64,000 nucleotides of DNA from Thermoanaerobaculia bacterium (GCA_965214805.1 OZ243982.1:1237116-1301115), one strand, 5' to 3'. Shown: positions 8,150 through 58,399, numbered from the stretch's first letter. Made by a program: numbers and translations. The notes: generated from the sequence alone by a model not told the origin.

Positions 8150-8225
<76 letters not shown>

Positions 8226-8911: not shown

Positions 8912-8977
8912 CGTCGGACTCCTCGTGCGGTCATGGATCCGGCCAACAGCCGGTGGTCAGAAGATATGCTGATCCGT

Positions 8978-9076
8978 GGAAGCGCTCGGGGGCTGGTGCC
9001 TTCCGCGGTCTTCAAAACCGTTGTCCGGGGCGTGATGCGTCACGGGGGTGGGTTCGATTCCCATGCGCTTCCGCCA
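8978..9076 (+). tRNA. selC: tRNA-Sec (selC), anticodon TCA
   Basis: 99 nt: 8-bp acceptor GGAAGCGC/GCGCTTCC, 6-bp D-stem GGGGGC/GCCTTC with a 4-nt loop TGGT, anticodon stem GCGGT/ACCGT with loop CTTCAAA (TCA reads UGA), long variable arm with CGTGA-TGCG-TCACG hairpin, T-arm GTGGG-TTCGATT-CCCAT, discriminator G, CCA. This 8/5 architecture plus the long extra arm is diagnostic for bacterial tRNA-Sec rather than tRNA-Ser. Confidence 0.85.
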
Positions 9077-9094
9077 CCGGCACACGCCGTGCAG

Positions 9095-9457: not shown

Positions 9458-9665
9458 GACGGCGGCGGATCATAGCAGGAGGCTGCAGTCTCGGTCCTGT
9501 CCGGTCTTGTCCCATGACAGATGAGCCTGAAGAAGCGCGGTCAATTCCACGAGAGACGCGCCTGAGCGAGCGTCAGGGATCCCCGAAGGATGGGTTCGCC
9601 GCCGCGGAAGAGCACGCGGCGGCGGTGTTCCCGGTTCCGGCTCGCAAGGACCGCCGGGACCCGCC

Positions 9666-32799: not shown

Positions 32800-32872
32800 G
32801 GGTCCATAGCTCAGCGGTCAGAGCATCCGGCTCATAACCGGCAGGTCCCTGGTTCGAATCCAGGTGGACCCA
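32800..32872 (+). tRNA. tRNA-Met elongator type (CAT anticodon; tRNA-Ile2 with lysidine cannot be excluded); CCA not encoded
   Basis: GGGTCCATAGCTCAGCGGTCAGAGCATCCGGCTCATAACCGGCAGGTCCCTGGTTCGAATCCAGGTGGACCCA; perfect 7-bp acceptor, G1:C72 paired (so not an initiator), anticodon loop CTCATAA, T-loop TTCGAAT. Confidence 0.85.
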
Positions 32873-33023: not shown

Positions 33024-33764
33024 ATGGAAAGAGTCCTTGACACGATCGTAGAGCTGCAGGAGGCAAGCGTGGAACTCGCGCGCAGTCTCGCCCTGCTCGA
33101 CGGGGTTCCCGAGTCGATGCAGGAACTTCACCGCGAACACGAAAGCAGGCGCAGCGAGATCGAAGAGCTGGAGCAGGAACAACAGCAGGCGGAGCTCGAG
33201 CGCCGCGCCGCCGAAATCGAGTCGGCAGCCGGCAAGGACAGCATCAGGAACTATCAGGAGCAGATTTCCCGCGTCACCACGCAGCGCGAGTACAGCGCGC
33301 TGCTGAGCGAGATCGACACCGTACGCGCGCAGATGCGGGAAGCCGACGAGAAGGCTCTTCTGGCTCTCGAACGTCAGGATCAGGCGTCGGCGCTCCTCGA
33401 CGAACTCCGCGGAGCCTTCGAGAGCCTGGACCTGCAGTACCGGGAGGCGCTGGCCGGCTGGGAAGAGCAGAAGCCCGCCATGAGGCAGCGGGTCGACGTG
33501 CTGAAGGGTCGGATCGAGGTCTTTCGCGAACGGCTGCCCCCCGCGACCCTGAACCAGTACGAACGGCTGTTCCAGCGTCACCGCGGCAGCCCGCTGGCGG
33601 TCATCCGGATGATCGAGAGCGCCAGGGCTCCGATCCGGCACTGTTCGTTCTGCAACTACCGGATCCGTCCCCAGGTAGTGCTCCAGATCCAGGCCCGGGG
33701 CGCCCTGGTTCCCTGTGACTCCTGCCAACGGATCCTGTATCTGGACGACGGAGAGAACGGCTGA
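33024..33764 (+). CDS. Coiled-coil protein with a C-terminal C4 zinc ribbon (zf-RING_7/DUF164, COG1579-like)
   Basis: 246 aa; long heptad-repeat N-terminus (EIEELEQEQQQAELERRAAEIE) and C-terminal HCSFCNYRIRPQV...PCDSCQRILY. Confidence 0.7.
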   Translation: MERVLDTIVELQEASVELARSLALLDGVPESMQELHREHESRRSEIEELEQEQQQAELERRAAEIESAAGKDSIRNYQEQISRVTTQREYSALLSEIDTVRAQMREADEKALLALERQDQASALLDELRGAFESLDLQYREALAGWEEQKPAMRQRVDVLKGRIEVFRERLPPATLNQYERLFQRHRGSPLAVIRMIESARAPIRHCSFCNYRIRPQVVLQIQARGALVPCDSCQRILYLDDGENG

Positions 33765-33805
33765 GCAGGACGCCCGATACGACAACCGCCGAGCGCCACA
33801 CGGAC

Positions 33806-34507
33806 TTGACGGAGCGGCTGTCGGAGGCCTGCCGGCGCGCCGGACGAGCTGCGCACGAGGTTGTCCTGGTCGGCGCCTGCAAGCGCCAGCCCCTGCAGCG
33901 CATCCTGGAGGCCGTGGACGCCGGCCTCCGTGTCCTGGGCGAGAACCAGGTCCAGGAGGGCCAGGCGCATCGCGCGGCGCTCCTCGAGGCCGGCTACGAC
34001 CACGTCGAGTGGCGCCTGATCGGGCCTCTGCAGACGAACAAGGCGCCGCGGGCATGCAGCGTCTTCGACGTGTTCGAGGCGGTCGACCGGGTCAAGGTCG
34101 CGCAGCGACTCGACCGCGTGCTGCGGAGCCGGCAGAGCGGGCAGCGGACCTGCCTGCTCGAAGTCAACATCGGCCGCGAGCCCAGCAAGCACGGGTTCCT
34201 GCCAGAGGAGGCAGACACCATGCTGGGCCTGGCCGAACTGAGCCACCTGTCCGTTCGCGGGCTGATGGCGATCCCGCCGCGACGCGCAGACCCGCGGGAG
34301 TCCCGCAGCGACTTCGCGGCCCTGCGCCGCCTGCGCGACGACCTGGGTCGGCGCGGCCTGTTCGGCGACCACGAGGGGTGGCTGTCGATGGGGATGAGCG
34401 CGGACTTCGAGACCGCCGTGCTCGAAGGCGCTACCCACGTACGGATCGGTTCGGCCCTGTTCGGGCCGCGCGCGCAGCGCCGAGACCGCAACGCCGCGGG
34501 CTGGTAG
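33806..34507 (+). CDS. yggS: YggS-family pyridoxal-phosphate homeostasis protein
   Basis: 233 aa alanine-racemase-N-terminal-fold protein; LVGACKRQP PLP-lysine region, GENQVQE, HLIGPLQTNK-like LIGPLQTNKAP, and C-terminal HVRIGSALFG. Confidence 0.9.
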   Translation: MTERLSEACRRAGRAAHEVVLVGACKRQPLQRILEAVDAGLRVLGENQVQEGQAHRAALLEAGYDHVEWRLIGPLQTNKAPRACSVFDVFEAVDRVKVAQRLDRVLRSRQSGQRTCLLEVNIGREPSKHGFLPEEADTMLGLAELSHLSVRGLMAIPPRRADPRESRSDFAALRRLRDDLGRRGLFGDHEGWLSMGMSADFETAVLEGATHVRIGSALFGPRAQRRDRNAAGW

Positions 34508-34517
34508 CGTTCCACCC

Positions 34518-36290
34518 TTGGAAACCCTCTCCGACCTGCTCTTCCGCGTCGCGGAACGCTACGGCGAACGCGAGGACCTGCTCTCCATCCGGCGGCATCG
34601 CCGGACCGAGCGGCTTTCCGCAGCCCGGTTCGTCGACGAGGTCCGCCGGACCGCAACGGCGCTCGAATCACACGGAGTGGTCAAGGGCGACCGCATTGCG
34701 CTCTTCTCGACCAACCGCCCCGAATGGCATGTGGTCGACTTCGCATGCCACCTCCTGGGAGCAGTGCCGGTACCGATCTACCCCACCCTGACCGCAGCCC
34801 AGGTGGCCTACATCCTTCTCGACAGCGGCGCCGGATGGATCTTCTACGACAACGCTGCGAAGCGGGATCTGCTCACGGGCCTGGTGACTCCCCAGGACGC
34901 GGACGAAGACGCGCGGCAGCAGGGCCTGCGTCTCGTCGCGCTCGAAGTGAACGCAACCGCGGACGGCGGAACGAACCTCGAGGCGCTGATCGACGGCGCA
35001 ACGCCGTCAGCCGATGATGGCCTCGAGCGCTTCCGGGGGCGGGTCCGACGCGACGACACGGCAAGCATCATCTACACCTCCGGTACCACCGGCGACCCCA
35101 AGGGCGTCGTCCTGTCGCACTGGAACTTCGTCTCGAACATCCTCGCGTGCCAGAAGCTCTATCCCTTGGGCGAGGAAGACAGGGCGCTCTCCTTCCTGCC
35201 CCTCTCGCATGTCTTCGAGCGCACGGTCGACTACCTGTTCTTCCACCGCGGCGTATCGATCCACTATTCCCCGGCAATCGAGCGAGTGGCCGGGCTCATG
35301 CCGAAGGTCCGGCCCACCGTCCTGTGCTCCGTACCCAGGCTCTACGAGAGCGCCTACATGCGCATCCAGGCCAACTTCGCAACGCAGCCGCGGACCCGTC
35401 GCCGCCTGATCGACTGGGCGCTCAAGGTCGGCCGGCGGCGAGCGGAGCGCGGCGGCGCGGCGCTCCGAGGCCAGATCGCCGACCGCCTGGTGTTCCGGAA
35501 GATCAAGGAACGTTTCGGCGGCTGCCTGCGCTTCACGATATCGGGCGGCGCCCCGATCGCCGACGAAGTCGGAGCGTTCTTCGACGCCATCGGCATCCGG
35601 CTCTACCAGGGTTACGGCCTGACCGAGACGGCGCCGGTGCTGGCCGTGGAGTACCCCGGCGCGGCGCGGCGCGGATCGGTCGGCACGGCGGCGCCCGGGG
35701 TCGAACTCCGCATCGACGACGACGGCGAGATTCTGGCCCGCACCGAAGGCCTGATGCAGGGCTACTGGAACCAGCCCGAGGCGACAGCCGAGGCGATCGA
35801 CCCGGACGGCTGGTTCCACACCGGCGACATCGGCAGGATCGACGACGACGGCTATCTCTACATCACAGACCGCAAGAAGGATCTGCTGGTCACGAGCGGC
35901 GGCAAGAACGTGGCGCCCCAGCCGATCGAGCAGATGATGGTGACCCACCCGGCCGTGGCGCAGGTGGTCGTGGTCGGCGACGGCTATCCGTACCTCAACG
36001 CCCTCGTGGTCCCTAACTACGCGGCCCCGCCGCCGCCGTTCGCGGGTTTGGCCGCGGACGAGCTGCGACGGGATCCGCGCCTTCAGGACACCATTCAGCG
36101 ACTGCTGGACAAGGTGAACGAACGCCTGCCCGCCCATGAACGAGTGCGCCGTTTCCGGCTTCTGGAGCGCGAACTCACGATTCAGGACGGTGAGATCACA
36201 CCCACCCTGAAGGTGCGCAGGAAGATCGTCAACGAGCGCTATCGCGACGTGATCGCCTCGATGTACCTCAAGAGCCAGCGAGTGGGTTGA
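34518..36290 (+). CDS. fadD: Long-chain-fatty-acid-CoA ligase (AMP-dependent synthetase)
   Basis: 590 aa; AMP-binding motifs IIYTSGTTGDPKGVVLSH, YGLTET, DGWFHTGDIG and TGDLKIKRR-like TPTLKVRRKIV. Confidence 0.9.
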   Translation: METLSDLLFRVAERYGEREDLLSIRRHRRTERLSAARFVDEVRRTATALESHGVVKGDRIALFSTNRPEWHVVDFACHLLGAVPVPIYPTLTAAQVAYILLDSGAGWIFYDNAAKRDLLTGLVTPQDADEDARQQGLRLVALEVNATADGGTNLEALIDGATPSADDGLERFRGRVRRDDTASIIYTSGTTGDPKGVVLSHWNFVSNILACQKLYPLGEEDRALSFLPLSHVFERTVDYLFFHRGVSIHYSPAIERVAGLMPKVRPTVLCSVPRLYESAYMRIQANFATQPRTRRRLIDWALKVGRRRAERGGAALRGQIADRLVFRKIKERFGGCLRFTISGGAPIADEVGAFFDAIGIRLYQGYGLTETAPVLAVEYPGAARRGSVGTAAPGVELRIDDDGEILARTEGLMQGYWNQPEATAEAIDPDGWFHTGDIGRIDDDGYLYITDRKKDLLVTSGGKNVAPQPIEQMMVTHPAVAQVVVVGDGYPYLNALVVPNYAAPPPPFAGLAADELRRDPRLQDTIQRLLDKVNERLPAHERVRRFRLLERELTIQDGEITPTLKVRRKIVNERYRDVIASMYLKSQRVG

Positions 36291-36389
36291 GTTCGGTCGC
36301 CGGACGAGGCGACGAGCCCGTGACCAGCCGGCCGGCTGCGCGGCATGGAGCCCCTGACGCAGCGCGCGGATCGGGCGGAGGCCAGGGAG

Positions 36390-36704
36390 CTAGTTCACGC
36401 GGCCCGACAGATCGGTGGGGTCGGGCGCCTCCTCGATGACGCCGTGGACATCCTCGTAGCGCCGGAGGTTGGCGCCCAGCGCCCTGATGATTCGCTTCAG
36501 GTGACCGGGGCTGGTCACGATGCGGGCGCTGACGATGCCCTGCGGCGGCACCACGTTGATGAAGTCGAGGATGAACTCCTCGCGCGTATGCGTGATGCGC
36601 AAGAGGTTGGAGTAGGCCCCCTTGAGCTCGGCATCGCCGATCTTGACGTTGATCGACGATGACGACTCCACGTCGCCCTGTTCTTCCCTGGATCGCTTGC
36701 TCAT
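36390..36704 (-). CDS. DUF3467 domain protein
   Basis: 104 aa (MSKRSREEQGDVESSSSINVKIGDAELKGAYSNLLRITHTREEFILDFINVVPPQGIVSARIVTSPGHLKRIIRALGANLRRYEDVHG); ATG at 36704 preceded by GGAGGA and overlapping the wzt stop by 4 nt. Confidence 0.7.
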   Translation of the reverse strand: MSKRSREEQGDVESSSSINVKIGDAELKGAYSNLLRITHTREEFILDFINVVPPQGIVSARIVTSPGHLKRIIRALGANLRRYEDVHGVIEEAPDPTDLSGRVN

Positions 36705-38113
36705 TCCATCCTCCGTGCGTCTGTCGCGCCGACGCGAAGCGGGGGCGCGCTGTCCGAATGGGCAGGCGAACGCCAATCGATCGCCGCTTGCAGGTCGGCA
36801 GCACCGCCATCGCCGCCGGCCAGCGCCTCGACATGCCACTCGTGGCAAGGCAGGTAGAGACCGATGCTCCGCAACGCGGAACTCTCGGCCACCGTGAACC
36901 GCAGCGCCTGGCGACGATAATCGTAAGCCCTGCCGTCGCGGGCGTGAACCGCGACATCGACCGTGTACTCGCCCGGCGCCAGCCGCAGTTCCGGACACGC
37001 CAGTCGCACCCGGACGGGGCCGCGCAGCAGGCGCGTTTCGTACCCGGCGAGATCGGTGTTGGTGCCCCAGCAGTCCACGCCGCGCGGCGTCTTGACCCCG
37101 ACCCCGAAGACGAAGTCGTCCAGTTCTTCCCGCGGCTCGACCTCGAGCTCAAACACCGCCGCCTCGCCGCAGTGCAGGTGATAACGCTCCTCGCAGGCGG
37201 CGCCGGCCAGGAGACGAGCGCCAGTGATCCGGGCCTGGCCGGACCCCCAGCGCAGAACTTCCTCCTCCGCGTCCGGCGGCGGCGCTGTCCCTGTTTCCTC
37301 CGGCCGCGATCTGCGGCGCTCTGCGGCCGCCGCCCGGCGACGGTCGTGAGCCTCGCCCTCGCGCGCGGCCACGGCCTCCAGATAGGCGTCGATCACCCGC
37401 CGCGTCGCACCGATCTCCCGTAGCCGCCCGCGGTCGAGCCAGACCGCCCGGTCGCAGAGTTCGTCGATCAACCCCATCGAATGGCTGACCACGAGCAGCG
37501 TCCCGCCCCGGGAAAGGTGCTCCTCGATGCGGGCGATGCAGCGGTGAACGAACTCCTCGTCGCCGACCGCCAGCACTTCGTCGACCAGGAGAATCTCGGG
37601 GTCGGTGTGGACGGCGACCGAGAAGCCGAGCCGCACGTACATGCCCGAGGAGTAGTTCTTGATCGGTTCCTCGATGAAGTCGCCCAGTCCGGCGAACTCC
37701 ACGATGTCGTCGTAGCGCTCCTCGATGCGGCGGCGGCTCAGACCGAAGAGTGCACCGTTGATGAAGATGTTCTCCCGGCCCGAGATCTCGGGATGAAAGC
37801 CCGCTCCCAGCTCGATCAGGGCGGCGATGCGGCCGTTGACCGTCAATTCGCCGGCCGTCGGCCGCAGCAGGCCCGCGACCAGCTTGATCAGCGTCGATTT
37901 CCCGGAACCGTTGCCGCCGATGATGCCCACCGCCTCCCCCGCGGCGACTTCGAAGCTGACATCCGTGAGCGCTTCGACCGCGTCGGCGGCAGCGAGTCCG
38001 CTGGTCAGGCTGCGCCCGAGGAGGGCGCTCTTCAGCGTTCGCAGGCGATAGCCGCCCGCGGCGCGGCGGTAGCGCTTGCCCACGCCGCGCAGGGCTACCG
38101 CCTGCCGACTCAA
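36701..38113 (-). CDS. wzt: Polysaccharide/O-antigen ABC transporter ATP-binding protein Wzt with a C-terminal Wzt_C carbohydrate-binding domain
   Basis: 470 aa; N-terminal nucleotide-binding domain (GIIGGNGSGKSTL, YSSGMYVRLGFSVA, LLVDEVLAVGDEEF) plus a ~200 aa C-terminal extension with a GVGVKTPRGVDCWGTNT-type motif characteristic of Wzt C-terminal glycan-recognition beta-sandwiches. Confidence 0.85.
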   Translation of the reverse strand: MSRQAVALRGVGKRYRRAAGGYRLRTLKSALLGRSLTSGLAAADAVEALTDVSFEVAAGEAVGIIGGNGSGKSTLIKLVAGLLRPTAGELTVNGRIAALIELGAGFHPEISGRENIFINGALFGLSRRRIEERYDDIVEFAGLGDFIEEPIKNYSSGMYVRLGFSVAVHTDPEILLVDEVLAVGDEEFVHRCIARIEEHLSRGGTLLVVSHSMGLIDELCDRAVWLDRGRLREIGATRRVIDAYLEAVAAREGEAHDRRRAAAAERRRSRPEETGTAPPPDAEEEVLRWGSGQARITGARLLAGAACEERYHLHCGEAAVFELEVEPREELDDFVFGVGVKTPRGVDCWGTNTDLAGYETRLLRGPVRVRLACPELRLAPGEYTVDVAVHARDGRAYDYRRQALRFTVAESSALRSIGLYLPCHEWHVEALAGGDGGAADLQAAIDWRSPAHSDSAPPLRVGATDARRME

Positions 38114-38114
38114 C

Positions 38115-38915
38115 TCAGACCGCCTCTGCCAACGTGTCGCTCAGCCGCGAGAACAGGCCGGCGCCCGCCGCCCAGGAAACCGCCGCGATCGCAGCCATGG
38201 CAGCCCACACCCGCGGCGCCGGCAGGCGTCCGTGAAACAGCAGATCCTGGATCGCCACGGTGAACGAGGTCATCGGGTTCAGTTGCACCAGTCGGGCAAG
38301 CTCGGACGGGATGTCGCCCAGGGTATAGATGATCGGCGCCAGGAAAAACAGCAGAACGAGCACGTTGCCGAGCAGATCCCGCACGTCCTTGAAATGGACG
38401 CCCAACGCCGACAATCCGAACGCGAGGCCCGCGATCATCACCGTCTCGATCACCAGCACGAGCGGCAACAGCACGCAGGTCCAGCCGGCGATGGGATAGC
38501 CGAGCAGCCTGCCGGCGACCAGGGCCAGAGCCACGATCGGCAACGCGAGCAGAAAGTGCAGAAGGTTGGACACCACAGCGACCGCCGGCAGCACCTCGAC
38601 CGGGAGCACCGCCTTGCGGATCAACCCGCTGTTGCCGGTCAGCGACGAACAGCCTTCGAGCAGCGAGGTCGAGAACCAGATCCAGGGGAAGAGACCCGTG
38701 ACGAGGAAGACGCCGTAGGGCTCGACATCAACCAGTTCCCCCCGCTTCAGGATCGCGCCGAAGACGAACGAGTAGACGGCCAGGAGCAGCAGGGGGTTCA
38801 GCAGAGACCAGAAGAAACCGAGCACGGTACCCCGATAGCGCGCCCGCAACTCCCGCTGGACCAGGGTCCACAGCAGGCCGCGGCAGCGAACGAGACATCG
38901 GGCGACCTCCAGCAT
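38115..38915 (-). CDS. wzm: ABC-2 type polysaccharide export permease Wzm
   Basis: 266 aa, six transmembrane segments, ABC-2 family profile (YRGTVLGFFWSLLNPLLLLAVYSFVFG); 1-nt spacing to wzt. Confidence 0.85.
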   Translation of the reverse strand: MLEVARCLVRCRGLLWTLVQRELRARYRGTVLGFFWSLLNPLLLLAVYSFVFGAILKRGELVDVEPYGVFLVTGLFPWIWFSTSLLEGCSSLTGNSGLIRKAVLPVEVLPAVAVVSNLLHFLLALPIVALALVAGRLLGYPIAGWTCVLLPLVLVIETVMIAGLAFGLSALGVHFKDVRDLLGNVLVLLFFLAPIIYTLGDIPSELARLVQLNPMTSFTVAIQDLLFHGRLPAPRVWAAMAAIAAVSWAAGAGLFSRLSDTLAEAV

Positions 38916-38924
38916 GAGCAGCAG

Positions 38925-41108
38925 TCATCTTACGCCCCGGACAGTCTTCTGCTCGATCTCGAGGTAGACGGGAGCGGGACCGAGCTGCACCGGTCCGGAA
39001 GGCAGCACCACGCCATCCCGGTCGCGTGCGGCGCGCACGCCGATCCGGGGACGGCAGGCCCGGCCGCGGCGGTCCAGCGCCCATTGCACCTGGACCTCGC
39101 GGCTCGGCGTCGTTGCCCGATAGCCGCGCACACCCGCCGGCAACGGGAGGCGTTCCACCCGGGCGCCGGCCAACTCGCGCTGGAGCTGACGCAGGGCGCG
39201 GTAGGCCGGCCGCCGTCGCAAGGAACCGCCTCGGGGGTCGACAAGCCCGTAGCCAGCCGCCGACAACTGCCACCAGTAGACGCGCTCGACGAGACCGGTC
39301 CCCAGAGCCTCGAGGCAGTAGCGAACGAGGTAGCTGGCCTGGGTGTCCTCGTCCACCGCGACATCTCGTCCGGCGGGCGCGTGAGGCCCTTCCCTGAGCG
39401 GCCAGTTGAACTCGGTGATCCAGCTCCGATCCGACGCACAGTCCGGAGCCCGACGGGCAAGCGCCCGCAGCAAGGCCAGCTTGCCCGCGAGGTCGAAACC
39501 GAGTTGAGGGTTCTCGGGCGCCCCTCGCCGGTCGACGTAGAGCTGACTGGCAAGGATGTCGAAGCGATGCTCCGGCAAACCCGAATGAACCAGACCGGCC
39601 GTTGCGTGGGGCTCGAAGTCGATCACCGCCGGAGCGAGGACGCGCGCATCCGGATTCGCCGCCCGCACGGCTTCGCCGGCAGCAGCCAGCAGATTCCAGT
39701 ACTCGTCCGGGCGCCACACGCCCCACTTGCTGCGGTTGGGCGCCTGACCGATGAGGAACGTGCTGCCCAGGGGCGAAAGGGCGGCGACGGCCTCCTCCAC
39801 GCGCCGCAGCCAGAGTCCGTTGTCCCGGACCAGCGATCGGTCCTGAGCAAGATGGAACACGAGATCGGCCGGCTGCAGCGCCCTCCGGGCGAGGATCTCC
39901 GCCAATCGCAGCAGATCCCTGTCCAGACCCTGCCAGAGATGGAAGCGCAGCAGAACGCTCTCCACCCCGAGATCGTCGAGCGCCTCGACCAGAGCGCCGA
40001 CCGGCGCCGAGTCCGGACCCACCGCCACGCCAAGTCCGCGAAAGGGGACTCTGTCCGGTGCTCGTTCGATTCTCCGGCGGAGGCGCTTCCCCTCGACGAT
40101 CGTTGCGAGCAGCGGCCCGGCGGCGCGAAGCAGGGGCCGGGCGTGGCGGGCGGCGTCACGCAGGCGAACTCCGAGGCGCTGGCCGCGTGTCGCCTGCTGG
40201 TGCGGCTGGTCAGTGAGCGGATCCCAGACCGCCCGCTCCTGGGGCTTCGCTCCGCGGTCGGAGGCCGGAATGTGGGGATGGGCGCGGCGGCGCGGCAGCA
40301 GCAGATCGGCGAGGCGTCGCAGCCCGCGGCGAGCGCCGTCCTTGGTCCGGATCCTGAGACGGAAGCCGTGGTGACAGACCCCGAACCAGAGCCGCTCCAA
40401 CCGGGACAACCCGCCGGAGCGATAGCCGCGCAGGTACTCCGACCGGTCCGCAGACCGCAACACCGGCATCCTGCCCAGGTCCCGCAGGCGCTGACTCGCC
40501 GACAGCCGGCGCCGGAAGCGGGCCCGGTTGAGATCCACGAGGTACAGCTCCGCATCCGTGGTCGGGGCCGCCAGCAGCACGTTGCCCGAGGTCAGGTCCC
40601 GAAACCAGATGCCGTGACGATGCAACTCCGCGGCCAGAGCGCCGACCCGCCGCAGCAGCGCCGGCCCGTCGATTCCCGGAAAACGCGCCGCGCCCTCTCC
40701 CGCATTCAACGCCCTGAGCACATGCCGCAACTCCGTGGCCTCCGGCACCAGCCGGCACACGAACCACGCAGGACCCTCCAGGGCCTTCGACTCGGCATAG
40801 AGAATCGGTTCCGGCGTCGCGATGCCCAGCTTCCCGAGCCGGCGCGCGGCATCGAAGCTCAGGCGCGCCCGCGTGCCTCGGCGGCGCCGGCGGAGTCTGG
40901 CGTGCAGGTCGTCATGGCGGAACTGCTTCACGACCACGGCGACATCGCCCTCGTTCCGGCTGCCATGCCATGCCGTTTCGTACAGGTAGTTCCTGCCCCA
41001 ATGCAGGCTGCGGGTGGCCTTGGCCGGATCGAGGAGGCGCCTGAGCGCGGCCTCGAAGTTCGCGTCCAGGTCGCCGGGGACGGCCTCCGGCGCCACGGCG
41101 CCGCGCAA
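38925..41108 (-). CDS. Fusion protein: N-terminal lipopolysaccharide-kinase-like domain (Kdo/WaaP family, PF06293-like) plus C-terminal glycoside-hydrolase-like TIM-barrel domain
   Basis: Single open frame with no stops from just after the rng stop to 38925. Residues NYLYETAWHGSRNEGDVAVVVKQF...LHRHGIWFRDLTSGNVLL...LYLVDLNRARF match the Kdo/WaaP LPS-kinase fold. About 450 aa downstream follow with (beta/alpha)8-like periodicity and a WITEFNWP...VYWWQL motif resembling the nucleophile strand of clan GH-A hydrolases (GH5/GH39-like). Start uncertain: TTG at 41108 or GTG at 41096; an upstream ATG would overlap rng by about 200 nt. The 1610 aa track ORF is this gene plus a shadow running through rng and rodA in a different frame. 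Confidence 0.6.
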   Translation of the reverse strand: MRGAVAPEAVPGDLDANFEAALRRLLDPAKATRSLHWGRNYLYETAWHGSRNEGDVAVVVKQFRHDDLHARLRRRRRGTRARLSFDAARRLGKLGIATPEPILYAESKALEGPAWFVCRLVPEATELRHVLRALNAGEGAARFPGIDGPALLRRVGALAAELHRHGIWFRDLTSGNVLLAAPTTDAELYLVDLNRARFRRRLSASQRLRDLGRMPVLRSADRSEYLRGYRSGGLSRLERLWFGVCHHGFRLRIRTKDGARRGLRRLADLLLPRRRAHPHIPASDRGAKPQERAVWDPLTDQPHQQATRGQRLGVRLRDAARHARPLLRAAGPLLATIVEGKRLRRRIERAPDRVPFRGLGVAVGPDSAPVGALVEALDDLGVESVLLRFHLWQGLDRDLLRLAEILARRALQPADLVFHLAQDRSLVRDNGLWLRRVEEAVAALSPLGSTFLIGQAPNRSKWGVWRPDEYWNLLAAAGEAVRAANPDARVLAPAVIDFEPHATAGLVHSGLPEHRFDILASQLYVDRRGAPENPQLGFDLAGKLALLRALARRAPDCASDRSWITEFNWPLREGPHAPAGRDVAVDEDTQASYLVRYCLEALGTGLVERVYWWQLSAAGYGLVDPRGGSLRRRPAYRALRQLQRELAGARVERLPLPAGVRGYRATTPSREVQVQWALDRRGRACRPRIGVRAARDRDGVVLPSGPVQLGPAPVYLEIEQKTVRGVR

Positions 41109-41149
41109 GCCGTCGAGTTCGAACCGGCGCTCCGGTCTCGACTCGGCGG

Positions 41150-42655
41150 TCAGATCCGCCCCCCGGTTTCGGCGTCGACGACAACGAAACGCTCGCGATG
41201 CAATTCCGGGTCCGCCTGAACCAGGATCGGCGCCGCGAACGCCCCCTGCAGGCCGTCCAGCACCGCCGACTCGGCGCCGCGCAGACCATCCAGCACCTCC
41301 GGATGGACCCGCACCGCCAACTGACGAACGCCTCTCCCGGCGCGCGCAAGGCATGTCCGCCGCAGTTCCAGGCAGATCGTCGCGACCGACTTGATGCGGC
41401 CTGCGCCTCCACAGGTCGGGCAGTCCCGGGTCAGCAGCTTCTCCAGGTTCGTGTGGCTGCGGCGACGAGTCAGCTGGACCAAGCCGAACTCCGAGATATC
41501 GAGCACCCTGTGCCTGGCGCGGTCCTTCTCCAGCTCCCGTTCCAGGCGGGCGAACACCTTCTCGCGGTGATCTTCGCGCCCCATGTCGATCAGATCGATG
41601 ACAAGGATGCCGGACAAGTCGCGCAGCCGGATCTGACGCACCGCCTCGACGACCGCTTCCAGGTTGGTCCGCAAGACGGTCTCGTCGAAGTCCGCGGCAC
41701 CGACGTCGCGGCCGCTGTTGACGTCGATGGCCACCAGGGCCTCCGTCTGGTTGATGACCAGATAGCCGCCTGACGGAAGCGGGGCGCGGTCCCGCAGCGC
41801 GGCTTCGACCGCGTCGTCGATCCGATAGCGCTCGAACAGACCCCTCCGGGTCCGCTCCACCCGTTCCCGGAGTTCCGGCTGCATCCGCCCGACGTAGCCG
41901 GCGATGCGGCGGTAGGCATCGGCGCCGTCCACCAGCAGCGAGTCGAAATCCGCGGAGAAGAGGTCCCGGATGACGCGCACATCCAGTTCGTCCTCGCGGC
42001 AGATCAGAGCCGGCGCTGTCGTGGCCGCCGTCCGTTCCTCGATCCGTCGCCAGGCGGCGGCCAGCGCCTCGTACTCCGCCTGGATGCGCTCTTCCGCCGC
42101 TCCTGCCGCGGCAGTGCGCACGATGCAACCCGGCAGAGCAACGGCGTCGTCGCGCCTGGCCTGGACCAGCCCCTTCAGGCGATTTCGTTCGTCCGCGTCC
42201 TCGATGCGCCTCGAAACGCCCACGCGGCCGCTGGTCGGCGTCAGCACCAGGAGCCGACCGGGAAGCGTGATCCGGGCGGTGATGCGCGCCCCCTTCGCCG
42301 CCATCCCGTCCCTGATGACCTGCACGATGAGATCCTGGCCCCGCCGCAGCACGTGATCGATCGCCGGCGCCGCTTCCCTGCTCGGCGCCCCGCGGCAAGC
42401 GCTCTCGGCGACCGGTGCTGCCGACCCCCCTTCGACCGCGTCGTCCGCCCAGAGGTAGCCGTCGCGCGCCAGTCCGAGATCCACGAAGGCGGCTCGCATG
42501 CCAGGCAGCACCCTTCGCACCCGTCCCTTGTAGAGGTTGCCGACCAGGCTCCGGCGTCCGCGGCGCTCGACGAGAAGCTCGACCAACCGGCCGGACTCGA
42601 CCACGGCTGCCCGCGTCTGGAGCGAATCGCTCTCGACCAGGAGCTCCCTGTCCAT
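41150..42655 (-). CDS. rng: Ribonuclease G (RNase E/G family)
   Basis: 501 aa; S1 domain (VGNLYKGRVRRVLPGMRAAFVDLG) and the RNase E/G catalytic core including DLIDM and the CPTCGGAGRIKS zinc link. Confidence 0.9.
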   Translation of the reverse strand: MDRELLVESDSLQTRAAVVESGRLVELLVERRGRRSLVGNLYKGRVRRVLPGMRAAFVDLGLARDGYLWADDAVEGGSAAPVAESACRGAPSREAAPAIDHVLRRGQDLIVQVIRDGMAAKGARITARITLPGRLLVLTPTSGRVGVSRRIEDADERNRLKGLVQARRDDAVALPGCIVRTAAAGAAEERIQAEYEALAAAWRRIEERTAATTAPALICREDELDVRVIRDLFSADFDSLLVDGADAYRRIAGYVGRMQPELRERVERTRRGLFERYRIDDAVEAALRDRAPLPSGGYLVINQTEALVAIDVNSGRDVGAADFDETVLRTNLEAVVEAVRQIRLRDLSGILVIDLIDMGREDHREKVFARLERELEKDRARHRVLDISEFGLVQLTRRRSHTNLEKLLTRDCPTCGGAGRIKSVATICLELRRTCLARAGRGVRQLAVRVHPEVLDGLRGAESAVLDGLQGAFAAPILVQADPELHRERFVVVDAETGGRI

Positions 42656-42697
42656 GCGTTGCGGGCGACCGATCCTGTCCGTGCCGGCGCAGGCCGA

Positions 42698-43816
42698 TCA
42701 GGCGTTGACGAACCGCCGCAGGTCCAGGCCGACGATCAGTCCGGTGGCCGCGCAGCAGAAAAGCATGAAGGAGCCGCCGTAGCTCAGGAAGGGCAACGGA
42801 ACGCCGGTGATCGGCAGCAGCCCGACCACCATGGCCGTATTGTAGAGAACGTGGCCGGCGATGAAGGCCAGGAGTCCGACCACGAGCAGCAGACCCGCAG
42901 GATCCCGCGCCGCCAGTGCCACACGGACGCCGTTCCCCAGGTAGAGGAGGAACAGGGCCATGGCGAGGATGACGCCGGCAAACCCGTACTCTTCTGCCAG
43001 CACCGCGAACACGAAGTCGGTGTGAGCAACCGGCAGGAAGCGCAGGCTGGATTGCGTCCCCTCGCCGAGTCCCTTTCCGAAAGCCTGACCCGAACCGACG
43101 GCGATCCTGCTCTGACGGACCTGGTAGCCCGCCCCCAGTGGATCCGCCTGGGGGCGGAGGTAGCTCAGGACACGTTCCTTCTGGTAGTCCCGCAAGGTGA
43201 AGGTCCAGAGCGCTCCAGCCAGTGCCACTGCGACTGCGGCGGCTGCGAGCGCCGAGCGGCCGCTGACACCGGTAGTGGCCGCCATGGCGGCGAGCACGAG
43301 CACGAACATCAGGGCGCCGCCCATGTCCGGCTGCAGCGCGATGAGCAGCACCGGAACCGCCGCGATCGCCGCGGCTGCCCACAGCCCGCCGCGAGGAGGA
43401 ACCGGGCGCCGATAGCGGGCGAAGCGTCGGGCCAGCAGCAGAACGGTGGCGATCTTGCAGAAGTCCGACGGCTGGCCCCCGAACCCCCCGATGCCGATCC
43501 AGCTGCGGGCGCCGCCTGCCTCGTGGCCGAAGAACGTGACCGCCGCCACCGCCGCCACCGCCGCCAGGTAGATCCAGACGGCGTGCCGAAGCAGCACGGA
43601 ATGGTCGATCAGAGCCGCGGCCACCAGGACCAGCACACCCAGGACGATCCACACCGACTGGCGCGAAACGTAGTTCGTCGGCAGCTCGGCGGAAGCGCTC
43701 GAGATCACGAACAGACCGATCACCGACAGACCGAGCGCCGAACCGACGATCTGCCACGTGATGGAACGGGCCTGGTTCGCCAGGGTCCGCGGATCAGGTC
43801 TGAACGGCAGGATCAA
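42698..43816 (-). CDS. rodA: Rod-shape-determining protein RodA (SEDS family)
   Basis: 372 aa SEDS polytopic membrane protein (HTDFVFAVLAEEYGFAGV, LPFLSYGGSFML); TTG start at 43816 overlaps the mrdA stop by 23 nt. Confidence 0.9.
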   Translation of the reverse strand: MILPFRPDPRTLANQARSITWQIVGSALGLSVIGLFVISSASAELPTNYVSRQSVWIVLGVLVLVAAALIDHSVLLRHAVWIYLAAVAAVAAVTFFGHEAGGARSWIGIGGFGGQPSDFCKIATVLLLARRFARYRRPVPPRGGLWAAAAIAAVPVLLIALQPDMGGALMFVLVLAAMAATTGVSGRSALAAAAVAVALAGALWTFTLRDYQKERVLSYLRPQADPLGAGYQVRQSRIAVGSGQAFGKGLGEGTQSSLRFLPVAHTDFVFAVLAEEYGFAGVILAMALFLLYLGNGVRVALAARDPAGLLLVVGLLAFIAGHVLYNTAMVVGLLPITGVPLPFLSYGGSFMLFCCAATGLIVGLDLRRFVNA

Positions 43817-45545
43817 AGTACGTCTCGTGCAAACGCTTCGCCAGCGGCGCGGCGGCTTCGGAGCCTCGTCCTCCGTGTTCCACGAGCACGACGACGACCA
43901 GCTCCGGCATCTCGACCGGCGCGTAGGAAGTGAACCACGCGTGATCTCCGTGCTCGGGCGGGAGGTCCTCGGACCGCGTCCACGTCGCCTGAGCGACGAC
44001 CTGGGCAGTGCCTGTCTTGCCCGCGATCGGAACGACCCGCGTGCTGGCGCGGCGCCCGGTCCCGTTCGCGACCACGTTCGCCAACGCCTCCCCGACGAAG
44101 GCCATCACGTCGCCATCCACGGCAATCGACGCCGGCGGCTGCGCTCCGCCCTGCAGCACGTGGGGCCTAACCCGGAATCCCCCGTTCGCCACCGCCGCGG
44201 TCATTGCGGCAACCTGAAGCGGCGAAGCGAGCACCGGCCCTTGGCCGATCGCCACCGAAATCGTCTCGCCCGGGTACCAGGGGAAACCCCGGCTCTCCCG
44301 ACTCCAATCGGGATCCGGCACCAGCCCCTCGCGTTCGGCGGGAAATTCGATGCCTGTTCGCCGACCGAGGCCCAGCAAACGGGCGTACCGGGCGATCCTG
44401 TCGATTCCCATCCTGCGGCCCTGCAGGTAGAAGTAGATGTCGCAGGAATGCTGCAGGGCGCCTCGGAGATCGAGGCGGCCGTGCCCCCTGGACTGCCAGC
44501 AACGCCAGCGGCGGCCGTACACACGGGTCGTGCCGCCGCAGTGGACTCGCTCGGCCGGATCGATCAGTCCGTCGGACAGCGCGGCCACGGCCATCACGAT
44601 CTTGAACACGGATCCCGGCGGGTAGGTGTTGTGGATGGTCCGGTTCTGAAGCGGTCCGGCCGGGGCTCCGACGATCCGCTCCCACTCCTCCTGGTCGAGG
44701 CGGCCTGCAAAGCCGTTCGGATCGAAGGACGGCGAGGAGACCATGGCCCGAACCGCGCCGTCCCGCGGGTCGAGGGCAACGATCGCTCCAGCCTTGCCTT
44801 CGAGCAGTTTCTGCGCTTCCTGCTGCAGTGCAAGATCGATGGTCAGAGTGACCGACTCGCCCGGCAGCGCATCGGTTCGCTTGACGTCCTCGCTCGACAC
44901 GATGCGGCCGCGGCTGTCGACGATCACGGTTCGCGCGCCGGCGGTCCCGCGCAACTCCTGGTCCCGCAACCCCTCCACGCCGCTGCGGCCGATCAGGTCG
45001 CCGGCAACGAGGGTCGGGTCGCTGTCCCGTTCGGCCGGCGTCGGCTCGCTCAGGTAGCCCAGAAGATGCGCGGTCTGCTCGCCGTACCGGTACAGGCGGC
45101 GCCACGTGGCCGCGATCTCGAACTCCGGGTGCTCCGAGATGTCGCCAGCGACCTCGAACCGCGCGACCTGGTTGAACTCGAGTTCCTCGGCCAGGAGCAC
45201 GGGCACATCCCGAGGCACGCCGCGGTATCGCTCGAGCACTTTCTCCAGTTCGGTTTCGTCGCGACCCAGGACGTTGGCTGCAAAGGCCAGGCTGGCTTCC
45301 GGATCGGCACTCCGCAGGCGATCGAAAAAGAGCCGGAACGTGGGAACGTTCTCGGCCAGAAGGTGACCGGAGCGGTCGTATATGGGACCCCGAAGCGCTT
45401 CCAGGCGGAGCACCCGCAGCCGGTTGTTCTCTGCAAGCTCCAGATAGTGCTCGGAACGAACGATCTGGACATGCCAATAGGAACTCAGAACAACGAGGAA
45501 CGCCGCCGCGAGCGATGACGCGAGTCTTCTCAGGCGGGTCGCCAT
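43794..45545 (-). CDS. mrdA: Penicillin-binding protein 2 (elongasome transpeptidase)
   Basis: Internal ATG at 45545 (MATRLRRLASSLAAAFLVVLSSYWHVQIV); dimerisation domain plus transpeptidase with SVFK (SxxK), SDG-like and KTGT motifs. Confidence 0.9.
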   Translation of the reverse strand: MATRLRRLASSLAAAFLVVLSSYWHVQIVRSEHYLELAENNRLRVLRLEALRGPIYDRSGHLLAENVPTFRLFFDRLRSADPEASLAFAANVLGRDETELEKVLERYRGVPRDVPVLLAEELEFNQVARFEVAGDISEHPEFEIAATWRRLYRYGEQTAHLLGYLSEPTPAERDSDPTLVAGDLIGRSGVEGLRDQELRGTAGARTVIVDSRGRIVSSEDVKRTDALPGESVTLTIDLALQQEAQKLLEGKAGAIVALDPRDGAVRAMVSSPSFDPNGFAGRLDQEEWERIVGAPAGPLQNRTIHNTYPPGSVFKIVMAVAALSDGLIDPAERVHCGGTTRVYGRRWRCWQSRGHGRLDLRGALQHSCDIYFYLQGRRMGIDRIARYARLLGLGRRTGIEFPAEREGLVPDPDWSRESRGFPWYPGETISVAIGQGPVLASPLQVAAMTAAVANGGFRVRPHVLQGGAQPPASIAVDGDVMAFVGEALANVVANGTGRRASTRVVPIAGKTGTAQVVAQATWTRSEDLPPEHGDHAWFTSYAPVEMPELVVVVLVEHGGRGSEAAAPLAKRLHETYFDPAVQT

Positions 45546-45616
45546 CAGGAGCACCACGCCGTCGGCGCTGCGCTCGCGGCCAGGAGCTTCCAGGTTCACC
45601 TTCCAGACACCCCTGC

Positions 45617-46153
45617 TCAGCGAAGACGCAGCTGCCGGCGTGTCAGTGCACGCCGCTTCGTCCGGCTCTCCCTGCGGCCTCGCATCCGATCCTTCACCCA
45701 GAGAACGACCAGGCCCACCGCTGTCGTCAATACCACGCGCAGCAGCACGGCGCCCGCGCCCGGTCTGAACTGTGCAAGCTCGAGCATCGCGAACAGGCCG
45801 ATCACGACTGCCTGATGAACCAGCACCCCGATCGCGATCAGCGTCAGGGTCACCAGCCGCTCGGTAGCGAGAACCCGCTGCGAGACGCGCGCAGCGCCAT
45901 AGCCGACCACACAGCACGCCACACCGTGCAAACCGGGAACCGACGACGTGACGAGGTCCTGGACCAGGCCTGCGGCCAGTCCGCCTGCCAGACCTCGAAG
46001 GGAATCGCCCGGAACGCTGTTCAGGACAACCAGCAGCACGAAGAGGTCGACGGTTTCGGCGGCCTTCGAGGAGATCGCGCCGAACAGCATGTCGACCAGG
46101 GCAACTGCCGCCAGGACGCCGACGAACCTGGCAGCCCTACCGGCTGCTGCCAT
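45617..46153 (-). CDS. mreD: Rod-shape-determining protein MreD
   Basis: Small polytopic membrane protein immediately after mreC; start ambiguous (ATG at 46153 overlapping mreC by 17 nt, or at 46090). Confidence 0.65.
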   Translation of the reverse strand: MAAAGRAARFVGVLAAVALVDMLFGAISSKAAETVDLFVLLVVLNSVPGDSLRGLAGGLAAGLVQDLVTSSVPGLHGVACCVVGYGAARVSQRVLATERLVTLTLIAIGVLVHQAVVIGLFAMLELAQFRPGAGAVLLRVVLTTAVGLVVLWVKDRMRGRRESRTKRRALTRRQLRLR

Positions 46154-46976
46154 CCGCGCCGTCCATGCCGACTTCGGGCAGGGGTTCGCGGCGCCACACG
46201 AAGGCATGGCTCAGCGAACCGAGATCCACGCTCGGGACGATTCGTATGTCGTGGAACAGATCGCCCTTCGACTCCACGGACGTGATCGTGCCGATCGGAA
46301 CGCCGCGGGGGAACACGCCGTCGATTCCGGCAGTGACGACCCGATCGCCAGGTCGGACATCGACCCGAAGCGGCAGGAACATGAGGGACAGAGCGCCTGC
46401 GTCGGCCGTGCCCCGGACGATGCCCTGCCGGCGCGTGCGCTCGACCATCGCGGCCACCGAAGACGCCCGGTCCGTGACCAGGAGTACCCGCGCGTACTTG
46501 CCGCTGGCCGAGACGACACGGCCCAAGAGGCCGTCCGTCGTGGTCACCGGACGCCGCGCCCAGTCTTCCCGGTCTCGGCCGCCAGGCAGGTGCAGGATCG
46601 CCGTTCGCCGCCGCGAGCGGTGATCGACATGGACGATGTCGGCCCGCTGCAGATCAGCGCGCGGCGCCGGCTCGAAGCGCAGCGGCGCCGAAGCGAGATC
46701 TGCTTCCAGCCGCGCACCCACCGCGGCCGCATGGGCGGATTCCAGGTCACGCAGCCGATTCCGCAGCTCCTCGTTCTTCCGCTCCAGCTCGGCCCTCGTG
46801 GAACGGTCCTCCCTGTAGCGGTCCACAGCCCGGCCAACAGCCGCGACGAACCTCTTGACCGGTCCGTCGAGCCGCAACGCGACGTTGTCTGCCTGCTCGG
46901 GCGCCCGAAGCGTCAGCAGCGACAGGAGGACAGCCACGACAACCGCGAACAGGACCGCTATCCAACGTTCGCTCAT
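46137..46976 (-). CDS. mreC: Rod-shape-determining protein MreC
   Basis: 279 aa; N-terminal TM helix, coiled coil (LERKNEELRNRLRDLE), C-terminal beta-barrel domains (GDRVVTAGIDGVFPRGVPIGTI). Confidence 0.85.
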   Translation of the reverse strand: MSERWIAVLFAVVVAVLLSLLTLRAPEQADNVALRLDGPVKRFVAAVGRAVDRYREDRSTRAELERKNEELRNRLRDLESAHAAAVGARLEADLASAPLRFEPAPRADLQRADIVHVDHRSRRRTAILHLPGGRDREDWARRPVTTTDGLLGRVVSASGKYARVLLVTDRASSVAAMVERTRRQGIVRGTADAGALSLMFLPLRVDVRPGDRVVTAGIDGVFPRGVPIGTITSVESKGDLFHDIRIVPSVDLGSLSHAFVWRREPLPEVGMDGADGSSR

Positions 46977-47089
46977 GGATGGCCGTTCTCTTCGTTCAGG
47001 AACCTGCGAAACGTCCGGCTGTGGCGGCGGCTACAGCAGCCCGCGGCGAAAGTCCCGCTGCATTCGACACGGACGGCGCCCACGGGCCG

Positions 47090-48106
47090 CTAGCGAACGG
47101 AGACCCTTCGCAGCAGATCGATGTCCCGCAGTACCTGGCCCGCTCCGAGCGCGACGCAGGCGAGCGGATCCTCGGCGGCGAAGGCCGGCAGTCCCGTGGC
47201 CTCACGCAGACGCTGGTCCAGCGAGCGAAGCAGCGCTCCGCCGCCGGTGAGCACGATGCCCTTGTCCATCACGTCGGCCGAGAGTTCCGGCGGCATCCGT
47301 TCCAGGGCCTGAAGCACCGAATCGACAATCGACTTCACCGGCTCCGCGAGCGCTTCCCTGATTTCTCCGTCGGAGATCCTCAGACCGCGCGGCACGCCCG
47401 CGACGAGGTCGCGGCCCTTGATGTCCATCTGCAGCGTCTTCTGGAGCGGGAAGGCAGACCCCAGTTCGATCTTGATCGCCTCCGCGGTCCGCTCGCCGAT
47501 CAGCATGTTGTGCTTGCGCTTGAGGTGCTGGGCGATCGCTTCGTCCATGGCGTTGCCCGCCACCCGCAGCGAGCGGCTGTAGACCGTGCCGGCAAGCGAG
47601 ATGACGGCGACGTCCGTTGTACCGCCGCCGATATCGACGATCATGTTGCCGGTCGGTTCGGTGATCGGCAGACTGGCCCCGATCGCTGCCATCATTGCCT
47701 GCTCGACCAGGAACACCTCCGAGGCGCCGGCGCTCATTGCCGATTCCCGGACCGCGCGTTTCTCGACCGGAGTGATCTCGGACGGCACGCCGATCACGAT
47801 TCGGGGGCGGGCAAAGCGCCGGCCGTGGTGGGCCCTGCGGATGAAGTGCTTGAGCATCTGCTCGGTCATGTCGAAGTCGGCGATGACCCCGTCCCTCATC
47901 GGCCGCACGAGCGCCAGGATGCCCGGCGTACGGCCCAGCATCTCCTTGGCCTCGGAACCGACTGCCTCGATGCGGTTGGTCTGGTTGTTCACGACCACCA
48001 CCGACGGCTCGTGAACGACGATGCCGTTCTCCTGGTTGAACACCAGGGTATTCGCGGTCCCCAGGTCGATTGCCAGGTCGCTCGAGAACCAGGGCAGCAT
48101 GCGCAA
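47090..48106 (-). CDS. mreB: Rod-shape-determining actin homologue MreB
   Basis: 338 aa; DLAIDLGTANTLVF phosphate-1 motif, VIGVPSEIT, DIGGGTTDVAVISL. Confidence 0.95.
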   Translation of the reverse strand: MRMLPWFSSDLAIDLGTANTLVFNQENGIVVHEPSVVVVNNQTNRIEAVGSEAKEMLGRTPGILALVRPMRDGVIADFDMTEQMLKHFIRRAHHGRRFARPRIVIGVPSEITPVEKRAVRESAMSAGASEVFLVEQAMMAAIGASLPITEPTGNMIVDIGGGTTDVAVISLAGTVYSRSLRVAGNAMDEAIAQHLKRKHNMLIGERTAEAIKIELGSAFPLQKTLQMDIKGRDLVAGVPRGLRISDGEIREALAEPVKSIVDSVLQALERMPPELSADVMDKGIVLTGGGALLRSLDQRLREATGLPAFAAEDPLACVALGAGQVLRDIDLLRRVSVR

Positions 48107-48408
48107 TGGACCGAACCTCCTAGGAAGCGGCGCGGTGCGCGCCGCGTGCTGCCGGGCTTCGGGTTGTCGCCGGCGCCGGCGCGCCTTTCGTCAACAAGGT
48201 CGGATTCCCGCCACAGGAAGCGGGCAAACGTGCTTGAAGATAACACAGGCAGGCGCATCGACTGTCGCGGGAAGATCCCGTGTTCGGAACGGGTTTCGGC
48301 GAATGACGGCGCGGCTGCGGCCGACGGCGGCGACGCCCGGCCGACGGGAGGCGCGCCAGTCCTGCTACCATCGGCGGCGCCGTCGCGCACCCGTCAGGAA
48401 CCGCTTCC

Positions 48409-56965: not shown

Positions 56966-56967
56966 GC

Positions 56968-58299: not shown

Positions 58300-58399
58300 T
58301 CGGCGTCTGTCGTGGACCCAGGGCGCCGCCGGTTTCGCTCGCCGACCTGGAGGGGAGCGGCAGGTCTTCCTGTGCTCCGGGTCTTCGGTCCCGCAGCCG

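Follow-up and report, generated by a model that had tools for sequence, protein, structure and literature searches.

The block at positions 36390-41108 of a 64,000-nucleotide stretch from a Thermoanaerobaculia bacterium (GCA_965214805.1 OZ243982.1:1237116-1301115), hereafter the window, joins two separately conserved envelope modules on the minus strand, i.e., a gene that fuses a kinase of the Kdo/WaaP type to a glycosidase-like barrel, and a Wzm/Wzt exporter followed by a small DUF3467 gene. In the reading that explains this arrangement best, to which we give about an even chance, the fusion would be a lipopolysaccharide (LPS) inner-core kinase with a partner barrel, lying secondarily beside a cap-dependent O-polysaccharide exporter; both the substrate (the LPS core) and the reaction of the barrel are predictions drawn from homology and gene context.

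The two modules are told apart by their distribution. With one genome scanned for each GTDB species, at least 569 species of Acidobacteriota prove to encode a relative of the fusion, and more than 327 full-length homologs have 45-98% identity to the window protein. For the counts of gene order, 80 loci were kept out of these species, nearly all labelled Acidobacteriota (Thermoanaerobaculia, Candidatus Multivorans and Holophagae), with enough upstream flank in 75 and at least 3 kb downstream in 63. The rng gene (RNase G) lies directly upstream of the fusion, on the same strand, in 68 of the 75, and the mre-to-rng gene order of the window is repeated in the loci L001, L002 and L004. The pair wzm-wzt directly adjoins the fusion in 26 of the 63 loci, all in a clade at least 69% identical to the window, lies behind a spacer of 0.45-1.3 kb in five and at a distance of 5-7.6 kb in two, and is absent within the downstream flank in 30. 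The identical ten-gene order is found in all 26 close species representatives, and on these gene orders the tight fit between fusion and wzm is a derived state, confined to one clade.

Given this, the four genes do not form one evolutionary unit, as a first-pass annotation of the window had supposed, and neither is the block an accessory or insertion-like element. Among the 80 loci, rng and fadD are nowhere neighbours in the absence of the fusion, which argues against an insertion; the G+C content of the block (0.66-0.73) is the same as that of its flanks, in a window of ~68-70% G+C, and the block is conserved. An inserted island was rejected on these grounds, no empty site having been found in the 80 loci.

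In the deeper branches, the spacer between the fusion and wzm holds a gene for a zinc-ribbon protein of ~100 residues (CPxCG) on the opposite strand, and in other loci it also holds the genes for a YfhO-like GT-C protein of ~780 residues and a periplasmic binding protein, none of the three being in the window. The zinc-ribbon gene, often together with the GT-C gene, is found at L086:1456-4167, L088:1665-4332 and L001:12277-12573, and also in L033, L035, L039, L043 and L050. The YfhO-like GT-C protein could act on the exported glycan in the periplasm, as its transferase or ligase. The four exceptions examined for the upstream side (L040, L053, L059 and L076, at ~7400-9900) have a T2SSE/PilB-type ATPase, with lepA before it, in the place of rng, a second conserved placement of the fusion; L076 also has a DUF374 gene downstream.

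The evidence on what the fusion does comes from relatives of its barrel outside this lineage. When 1.84 billion cluster representatives were searched in full by HMMER with the barrel module alone (E<=1e-3), 551 matched, so that the family spans at least 551 clusters at 50% identity; searched with a profile built from the stand-alone barrels, it comprises at least 2,683 when clustered at 90%. Among the few members with a label are Campylobacterota, Gammaproteobacteria, Acidobacteriota and candidate phyla, the names including Cocleimonas, Endozoicomonadaceae, Aminicenantia and Schekmanbacteria, and their annotations read “hypothetical protein” or the generic “glycosyl hydrolase”. Stand-alone barrels have 410-475 residues, some with a hydrophobic N-terminus, and the fusions ~730. 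One relative, P0290, is a reversed barrel-kinase fusion, and another, P0317, fuses a glycosyltransferase family 4 (GT4) domain to the kinase and the barrel, and adjoins a GT2 gene.

The surroundings of the stand-alone barrels were read in 80 metagenomic loci that the profile of these barrels retrieved (median length 7.8 kb). GT9 or ADP-heptose pathway genes occur in 59 of them, a GT9 gene lies directly downstream of the barrel in 30, and of the 37 loci whose upstream flank is long enough, 28 have a Kdo-like kinase within 3.5 kb of the barrel. For example, L092 reads LpxL-like, two GT9, GT4, GT90, barrel, kinase, and then GmhA, HldE, HldD, GmhB and WaaA, where the 243-residue protein after the barrel is a homolog of the fusion kinase (hhalign 98.4%, E 6.7e-15). 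In L094, a 269-residue kinase homolog (98.7%) lies 3 nt before the barrel, with AnmK and an M23 peptidase near, and L095 has a GT9 gene, a fusion of an ICMT/PEMT methyltransferase to a Kdo kinase (6496-8001) and an overlapping barrel gene (8001-9287).

The occurrence of the fusion in both orders, together with the conserved adjacency, is strong evidence, at the level of sequence, that kinase and barrel act together, and the heptose and GT9 surroundings would place their work in LPS inner-core assembly. It is because the same parts sit in the heptose clusters of other phyla that the window fusion is predicted to act on lipid A-core. As for L095, its contig belongs to candidate division CSSED10-310, and the pairing of kinase and methyltransferase suggests a methyl-phosphate modification of LPS, presumably comparable to that of Leptospira LmtA or to the WbdD cap.

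The genome of the window is that of a Thermoanaerobaculia member (Acidobacteriota), near Candidatus Multivorans. Four minus-strand open reading frames (ORFs) fill the block, and the tight coupling that the first-pass annotation had reported for them is confirmed: 9 nt separate the stop codon of the fusion (TGA, 38927-38925) from the start of wzm (ATG, 38915), 1 nt separates the stop of wzm (TGA, 38117-38115) from the start of wzt (TTG, 38113), and the ATGA at 36704-36701 is common to the stop of wzt and the start of the DUF3467 gene, a 4-nt overlap. The rng gene stops at 41150, which leaves 41 nt before the start of the fusion. As rng itself follows rodA, pbp2, mreD, mreC and mreB on the same strand, the four genes are the end of a ten-gene co-directional cluster, mreB-mreC-mreD-pbp2-rodA-rng-fusion-wzm-wzt-DUF3467. 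Co-transcription of the block with this cluster is something that we infer; a scan of 36200-48400 for promoter and terminator consensus sequences stayed at chance level and says nothing on operon boundaries. The features are as follows, residues being numbered from the first codon of each gene.

38925..41108, minus strand: fusion gene, WaaP/Kdo kinase with GH39-like barrel (ORF, Pfam, AlphaFold2 (AF2) model)
40254..41036, minus strand: kinase domain, about residues 25-285 (PF06293, E 1.6e-11; WaaP 6DFL profile match)
40926-40928, minus strand: K61, invariant kinase column
40596-40601, minus strand: R170-D171, invariant kinase columns
40581-40583, minus strand: N176, invariant kinase column
40533-40535, minus strand: D192, invariant kinase column
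38928..40241, minus strand: barrel module, residues 290-727, proposed member of an undescribed clan-GH-A-like family
39732..39737, minus strand: N458-R459 of N-R-x-K-W after strand β4 (strand order in the model; all architectures)
39411..39413, minus strand: E566 of W-I-T-E-x-N-W-P at the end of strand β7 (strand order in the model; conservation)
38115..38915, minus strand: wzm, ABC-2 type permease, 266 residues (PF01061, E 7e-19)
36701..38113, minus strand: wzt, ATP-binding cassette (ABC) ATPase with Wzt_C, 470 residues, TTG start (PF00005 and PF14524)
36857-37255, minus strand: Wzt_C domain, residues 287-419 of wzt (PF14524, E 1.2e-24)
36390..36704, minus strand: DUF3467 gene, 104 residues, overlapping the wzt stop (PF11950)
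41150..42655, minus strand: rng, RNase G (ORF; RNase_E_G in homologous loci)
42698..48190, minus strand: rodA, pbp2, mreD, mreC and mreB (ORFs; Pfam matches for MreB and MreC)

The fusion has 727 residues when read from the TTG at 41108, and an in-frame GTG at 41096 gives 723, the length of the homolog P0001, which is 98% identical to the window protein. An interrupted or frameshifted ORF was considered and rejected, since the frame is intact and full-length homologs of 98-45% identity exist. The domains named in the first-pass annotation (Kdo/WaaP kinase, barrel, Wzm, Wzt_C and DUF3467) agree with both Pfam and the AF2 model, and the Kdo/WaaP likeness of the kinase region is borne out. Residues 69-214 match Kdo PF06293 with 44.5 bits against a cut-off of 21.3 bits, all of the 42 homologs aligned for conservation match this family (best E 1e-14), and a profile search of the PDB leads to the LPS heptose kinase WaaP as the closest relative of solved structure (6DFL, E 4.4e-12). 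A single-sequence phmmer search against the PDB, using the kinase half, found no match, and it was the profile alone that reached WaaP. In the profile alignment, the HRD and DL(N/H)RA motifs, including the Mg-binding Asp, align with WaaP, and K61 (the β3 Lys), R170-D171 (catalytic loop), N176 and D192 (metal-binding) are invariant in the 42 sequences. The protein appears soluble, having no transmembrane-like segment (top 19-residue hydropathy 1.22). Weak Bud32 and Pkinase matches were also found in the fusion or its homologs, and neither the fusion nor any of the 42 homologs has a methyltransferase domain in Pfam.

One detail of the catalytic loop sets the window protein apart, as residues 169-171 (40596-40604, minus strand) read F-R-D where most homologs read H-R-D; given that Arg and Asp are invariant, activity is probably unaffected.

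The C-terminal half has the barrel fold that had been proposed for it. The AF2 model built from the 42 homologs (predicted local distance difference test 89, predicted template modelling score 0.83) consists of the kinase domain, two long helices, an eight-stranded β/α barrel and a C-terminal β-sandwich, and the module at residues 290-727 is laid out as WDxLSDQP strands, a helical arm, the (β/α)8 barrel and the β-sandwich, which is the architecture of the glycoside hydrolase (GH) family 39, i.e., a (β/α)8 barrel with an accessory β-sandwich. At the level of sequence, nothing in Pfam, NCBIfam or the PDB matches the region ~290-727 in the window protein and 41 homologs (Pfam at E<=10), and Pfam at E<=0.01 gives no family for seven stand-alone barrels or for the truncated P0325. 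The phmmer search of PDB sequences with the barrel returned a chance adenylate kinase match alone (E 1.2), and tblastn of the barrel against 72,556 plasmids returned no match.

Enzymes of clan GH-A have their acid/base Glu behind an Asn that comes after strand β4, and their nucleophile Glu at the end of strand β7; in the GH39 enzyme XynB these are Glu160 and Glu277, respectively (PMC6933502). The fusion, counted along the strands of its model, has the nucleophile Glu in the form of the invariant E566, in a β7 strand that ends W-I-T-E566-x-N-W-P, and has after β4 the sequence G-Q-A-x-N458-R459-S-K-W, so that an invariant Asn-Arg (N-R-x-K-W) stands where the acid/base Glu would be. R459 and E566 would thus correspond to the acid/base and nucleophile positions, by strand order and motif likeness rather than by superposition. 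Whatever the architecture of the protein, N-R-x-K-W and E-x-N-W-P do not vary within the family, D-F-E and L-Y-V-D-R-x-G-x-P-E hardly vary, and ~25 residues around the barrel rim stay the same from phylum to phylum and in all architectures, among them the Glu at the position of E566, a Tyr on β6, D-F-E and D-R-R. Given that these motifs are fixed in all architectures, the loss of the acid/base Glu is, on the alignments, not a matter of decay.

The exporter has all three domains of a Wzm/Wzt system with a cap-binding domain, i.e., permease, ATPase and Wzt_C. Wzm matches ABC2_membrane (PF01061) with 68.6 bits, the galactan/KpsM-type permeases of NCBIfam falling below their cut-off, and Wzt matches ABC_tran (PF00005) with 75.7 bits and Wzt_C (PF14524) with 87.3 bits, against a cut-off of 30.4 bits. 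An ATPase with such a C-terminal binding module normally exports capped chains only (PMC11231755), and this supports what the first-pass annotation had said of the Wzt type. That annotation had also found no glycosyltransferases adjacent, and a domain scan of ~40 window ORFs found none; within the four-gene block, Pfam found no second enzyme besides the fusion.

The DUF3467 product is a small soluble ββββα protein of 104 residues whose profile match reaches 66 bits, above the 25-bit cut-off, and covers positions 6-91 of 92. The family had been named correctly in the first-pass annotation, and its accession is PF11950, not PF11953. The genes wzm, wzt and DUF3467 co-travel wherever they are seen, with two exceptions: wzt has no DUF3467 gene beside it in L018 (Ca. 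Multivorans thiocomprendens, 13774-14248), and in L087 (7571-8282) wzt is down to a 75-residue Wzt_C fragment while DUF3467 is intact. As its gene keeps a fixed place behind wzt in this phylum, DUF3467 may have an accessory role in export. The literature search returned one incidental mention of DUF3467, with nothing relevant on its function, and nothing relevant on Wzt in Acidobacteria, on WaaP with a TIM barrel or on the LPS of Thermoanaerobaculia.

Under the inner-core reading, the first module would be a soluble cytoplasmic enzyme that acts on lipid A-core from the inner side of the cytoplasmic membrane. One of the core sugars would be phosphorylated by its kinase, and its barrel would bind, and probably process, the resulting anionic glycan, phosphorylated or bearing 3-deoxy-D-manno-octulosonic acid (Kdo), in a non-canonical manner, probably by cleaving or transferring a glycosyl group with no need of a general acid, perhaps because a phosphate or carboxylate is the leaving or neighbouring group. 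The second module, Wzm/Wzt, should admit through Wzt_C only a capped undecaprenyl-linked polysaccharide made elsewhere, and the loss of the spacer in a Multivoraceae-like clade would have left the two modules abutting.

Several points weigh against this reading. The acidobacterial fusions have no heptosyltransferase or ADP-heptose gene within 10 kb, so that the link to the LPS core comes from homology in other phyla, where the barrels are 32-44% identical to that of the window and the kinases ~25%. The place of Arg for Glu at the acid/base position has strand order and motif likeness as its basis, and not a superposition of structures, and the literature searches returned no biochemical data for any member of the kinase-barrel family. 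In addition, the 9-nt coupling of the fusion and wzm in 26 species, like the looser synteny of the two in seven deeper loci, would also be compatible with a direct functional link to the exporter.

Such a link is the substance of an alternative that we consider doubtful, in which the fusion would be a chain terminator or remodeller of the Wzm/Wzt system, phosphorylating the non-reducing end of the polysaccharide so that Wzt_C reads the phosphate as a cap, with the barrel as a glycan-holding or trimming module, comparable to WbdD in E. coli O9a. The arrangement shared by the 26 species representatives favours it, as do the same-strand synteny over 0.45-7.6 kb in the seven deeper loci, and also in L086, the need of Wzt_C-type exporters for a capped substrate, the absence of any other enzyme from the block and the GT4-kinase-barrel fusion P0317 beside its GT2 gene; moreover, capping enzymes that join a kinase to a methyltransferase are known, and one such enzyme carries a carbohydrate-binding module in addition (PMC11231755, PMC3482155). 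On the other hand, 30 of the 63 acidobacterial loci keep the rng-fusion pair without Wzm/Wzt in the downstream flank, the stand-alone pairs of barrel and kinase sit in heptose and inner-core clusters and not by Wzt_C transporters, the nearest solved relative of the kinase is the core kinase WaaP, and the fusion has no methyltransferase domain, so that the pairing of kinase and methyltransferase that makes a methyl-phosphate cap in enzymes of the WbdD type is not found in it. The first-pass annotation had thought a chain-terminating or remodelling enzyme plausible, and had set against its own proposal the case of a core LPS module ubiquitous in the lineage. For the fusion gene this is largely what was found, adjacency to the exporter being limited to one clade, and the terminator idea is weakened by it, as well as by the homologous halves in the LPS core clusters of other phyla.

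The inner-core reading has also to be weighed against two readings that draw on the neighbouring elongation genes. According to one of them, which we hold to be distinctly unlikely, the barrel would be a dead pseudo-glycosidase, serving as a glycan- or phosphate-binding partner or as a sensor, and the kinase may be regulatory and tied to elongation; the replacement of the acid/base Glu by Arg in every member, the pseudo-enzyme β-Klotho among the structural neighbours of the barrel, the weak Bud32 and Pkinase matches and the position near the mre-pbp2-rodA-rng cluster in 68 of 75 loci are consistent with this, whereas the ~25 invariant rim residues exceed the usual need of binding alone, the LPS-cluster context favours a sugar substrate, and CmGH1, an enzyme of the GH39 fold that lacks both canonical Glu residues, is still active (PMC6933502). 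The remaining reading, which is very improbable, makes the fusion an enzyme of peptidoglycan turnover, in which a glycosidase cleaves a muropeptide or disaccharide and the kinase phosphorylates the sugar, in the manner of NagZ and the sugar kinases. A soluble cytoplasmic protein encoded after mreBCD-pbp2-rodA-rng in most species would suit this role, and the split pair of L094 lies near AnmK and an M23 peptidase, but the kinase is of the Kdo/WaaP family, outside the known kinase families for N-acetylmuramic acid and N-acetylglucosamine, the hexosaminidases of the recycling pathway belong to GH3, GH20 or GH84 and are not GH39-like, and 59 of the 80 stand-alone loci are heptose/LPS clusters.

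For the annotation of the window, the result is that the block is an envelope cluster conserved in its lineage, in which elongation genes are joined to an LPS-type modifying enzyme and to an O-polysaccharide exporter, and not a mobile accessory glycan operon. More generally, a large family with a glycosidase fold stands without family annotation while being genetically tied to WaaP-type kinases and heptosyltransferase genes, and it suggests that core assembly or editing can include a step absent from the E. coli and Pseudomonas model systems. A broader claim, tentative and on balance unlikely, is that kinase and barrel are an unrecognised two-component LPS inner-core enzyme across many phyla, whose barrel, with an Arg/Lys pair in exchange for the acid/base Glu, processes the sugar that the kinase has just phosphorylated. 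If so, the barrel could cleave or transfer a glycosyl group, the phosphate being the leaving group, a recognition element or the catalytic base, the step in Thermoanaerobaculia would be co-expressed with the elongasome and a cap-dependent exporter, and DUF3467 would be a new accessory subunit.

Beyond the end of the cluster, the convergent neighbours on the plus strand (33024-36290) are a CT398-like zinc-ribbon gene, YggS (Ala_racemase_N) and a FadD-like AMP-binding enzyme, a trio that is syntenic with the exporter across deep acidobacterial branches (L001, L004, L086 and L088); in some loci, though not in the window, DivIVA sits among them. A tRNA-Met gene (anticodon CAT) lies at 32800-32872 (plus strand), flanked by a 266-residue ORF at 31737-32537 without a Pfam match and by the Zn_ribbon_9/CT398-like gene at 33024-33764. 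Four further ORFs, at 3042-4715 (minus), 8288-8956 (minus), 56647-58608 (minus) and 58844-59554 (plus), have a coding-like G+C content at third codon positions and no Pfam match at E<=1e-4, and some of them may be opposite-strand shadow ORFs.

When the block is set beside known systems, the closest counterpart of the kinase half is WaaP. The phosphorylation of the LPS core by kinases of this type underpins the stability of the outer membrane, and WaaP is essential in Pseudomonas aeruginosa. Both proteins have a fold like that of the eukaryotic protein kinases, with the HRD catalytic loop and DL(N/H)RA, both are cytoplasmic, and the relatives of the fusion kinase sit in heptose and core clusters, as waaP does. 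However, the identity between the two is low, the fusion kinase is permanently paired with or fused to a GH-A-like barrel that WaaP does not have, and in Acidobacteriota the fusion follows rng, outside any waa-type cluster. The likeness to WbdD of E. coli O9a and to ORF6-O7 of K. pneumoniae O7, the latter with an extra carbohydrate-binding module (PMC3482155, PMC11231755), lies in a kinase fold encoded beside a Wzm/Wzt system with a cap-binding ATPase; the fusion differs from these terminators in having no methyltransferase domain and no recognised coiled-coil ruler or glycosyltransferase-binding region, in a kinase of a different family, and in a gene that is conserved also in the 30 of 63 loci with no exporter in the downstream flank.

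The exporter itself resembles the O-antigen ABC transporter Wzm-Wzt of Aquifex aeolicus (7K2T, 8DKU and 6AMX), whose Wzt has been solved at full length, the best PDB sequence match of Wzt being 8DKU/7K2T with E 4e-73 in the nucleotide-binding domain and a second matched stretch in the C-terminal domain, and wzt being likewise paired with an ABC-2 permease. The window Wzt differs in its charged linker of ~27 residues and its C-terminal tail of ~50 residues, and its gene is followed by a translationally coupled DUF3467 gene, with no biosynthetic glycosyltransferases nearby. For DUF3467, the closest known fold is that of the PUR-alpha repeat and Whirly (PDB 3N8B, 8CHW and 3N1H).

Finally, the closest known barrels to that of the fusion are those of GH39 (PslG 4ZN2, GH39wh2 5JVK and XynB1 1W91), from which it differs by lacking membership at the sequence level, by having an invariant Arg in the place of the β4 acid/base Glu, and by being cytoplasmic and linked to a kinase, in contrast to the secreted, periplasmic or catabolic PslG and xylosidases. 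We would class the fusion as a new WaaP-family kinase whose barrel half is the founding example of an undescribed clan-GH-A-like family with a non-canonical active site.

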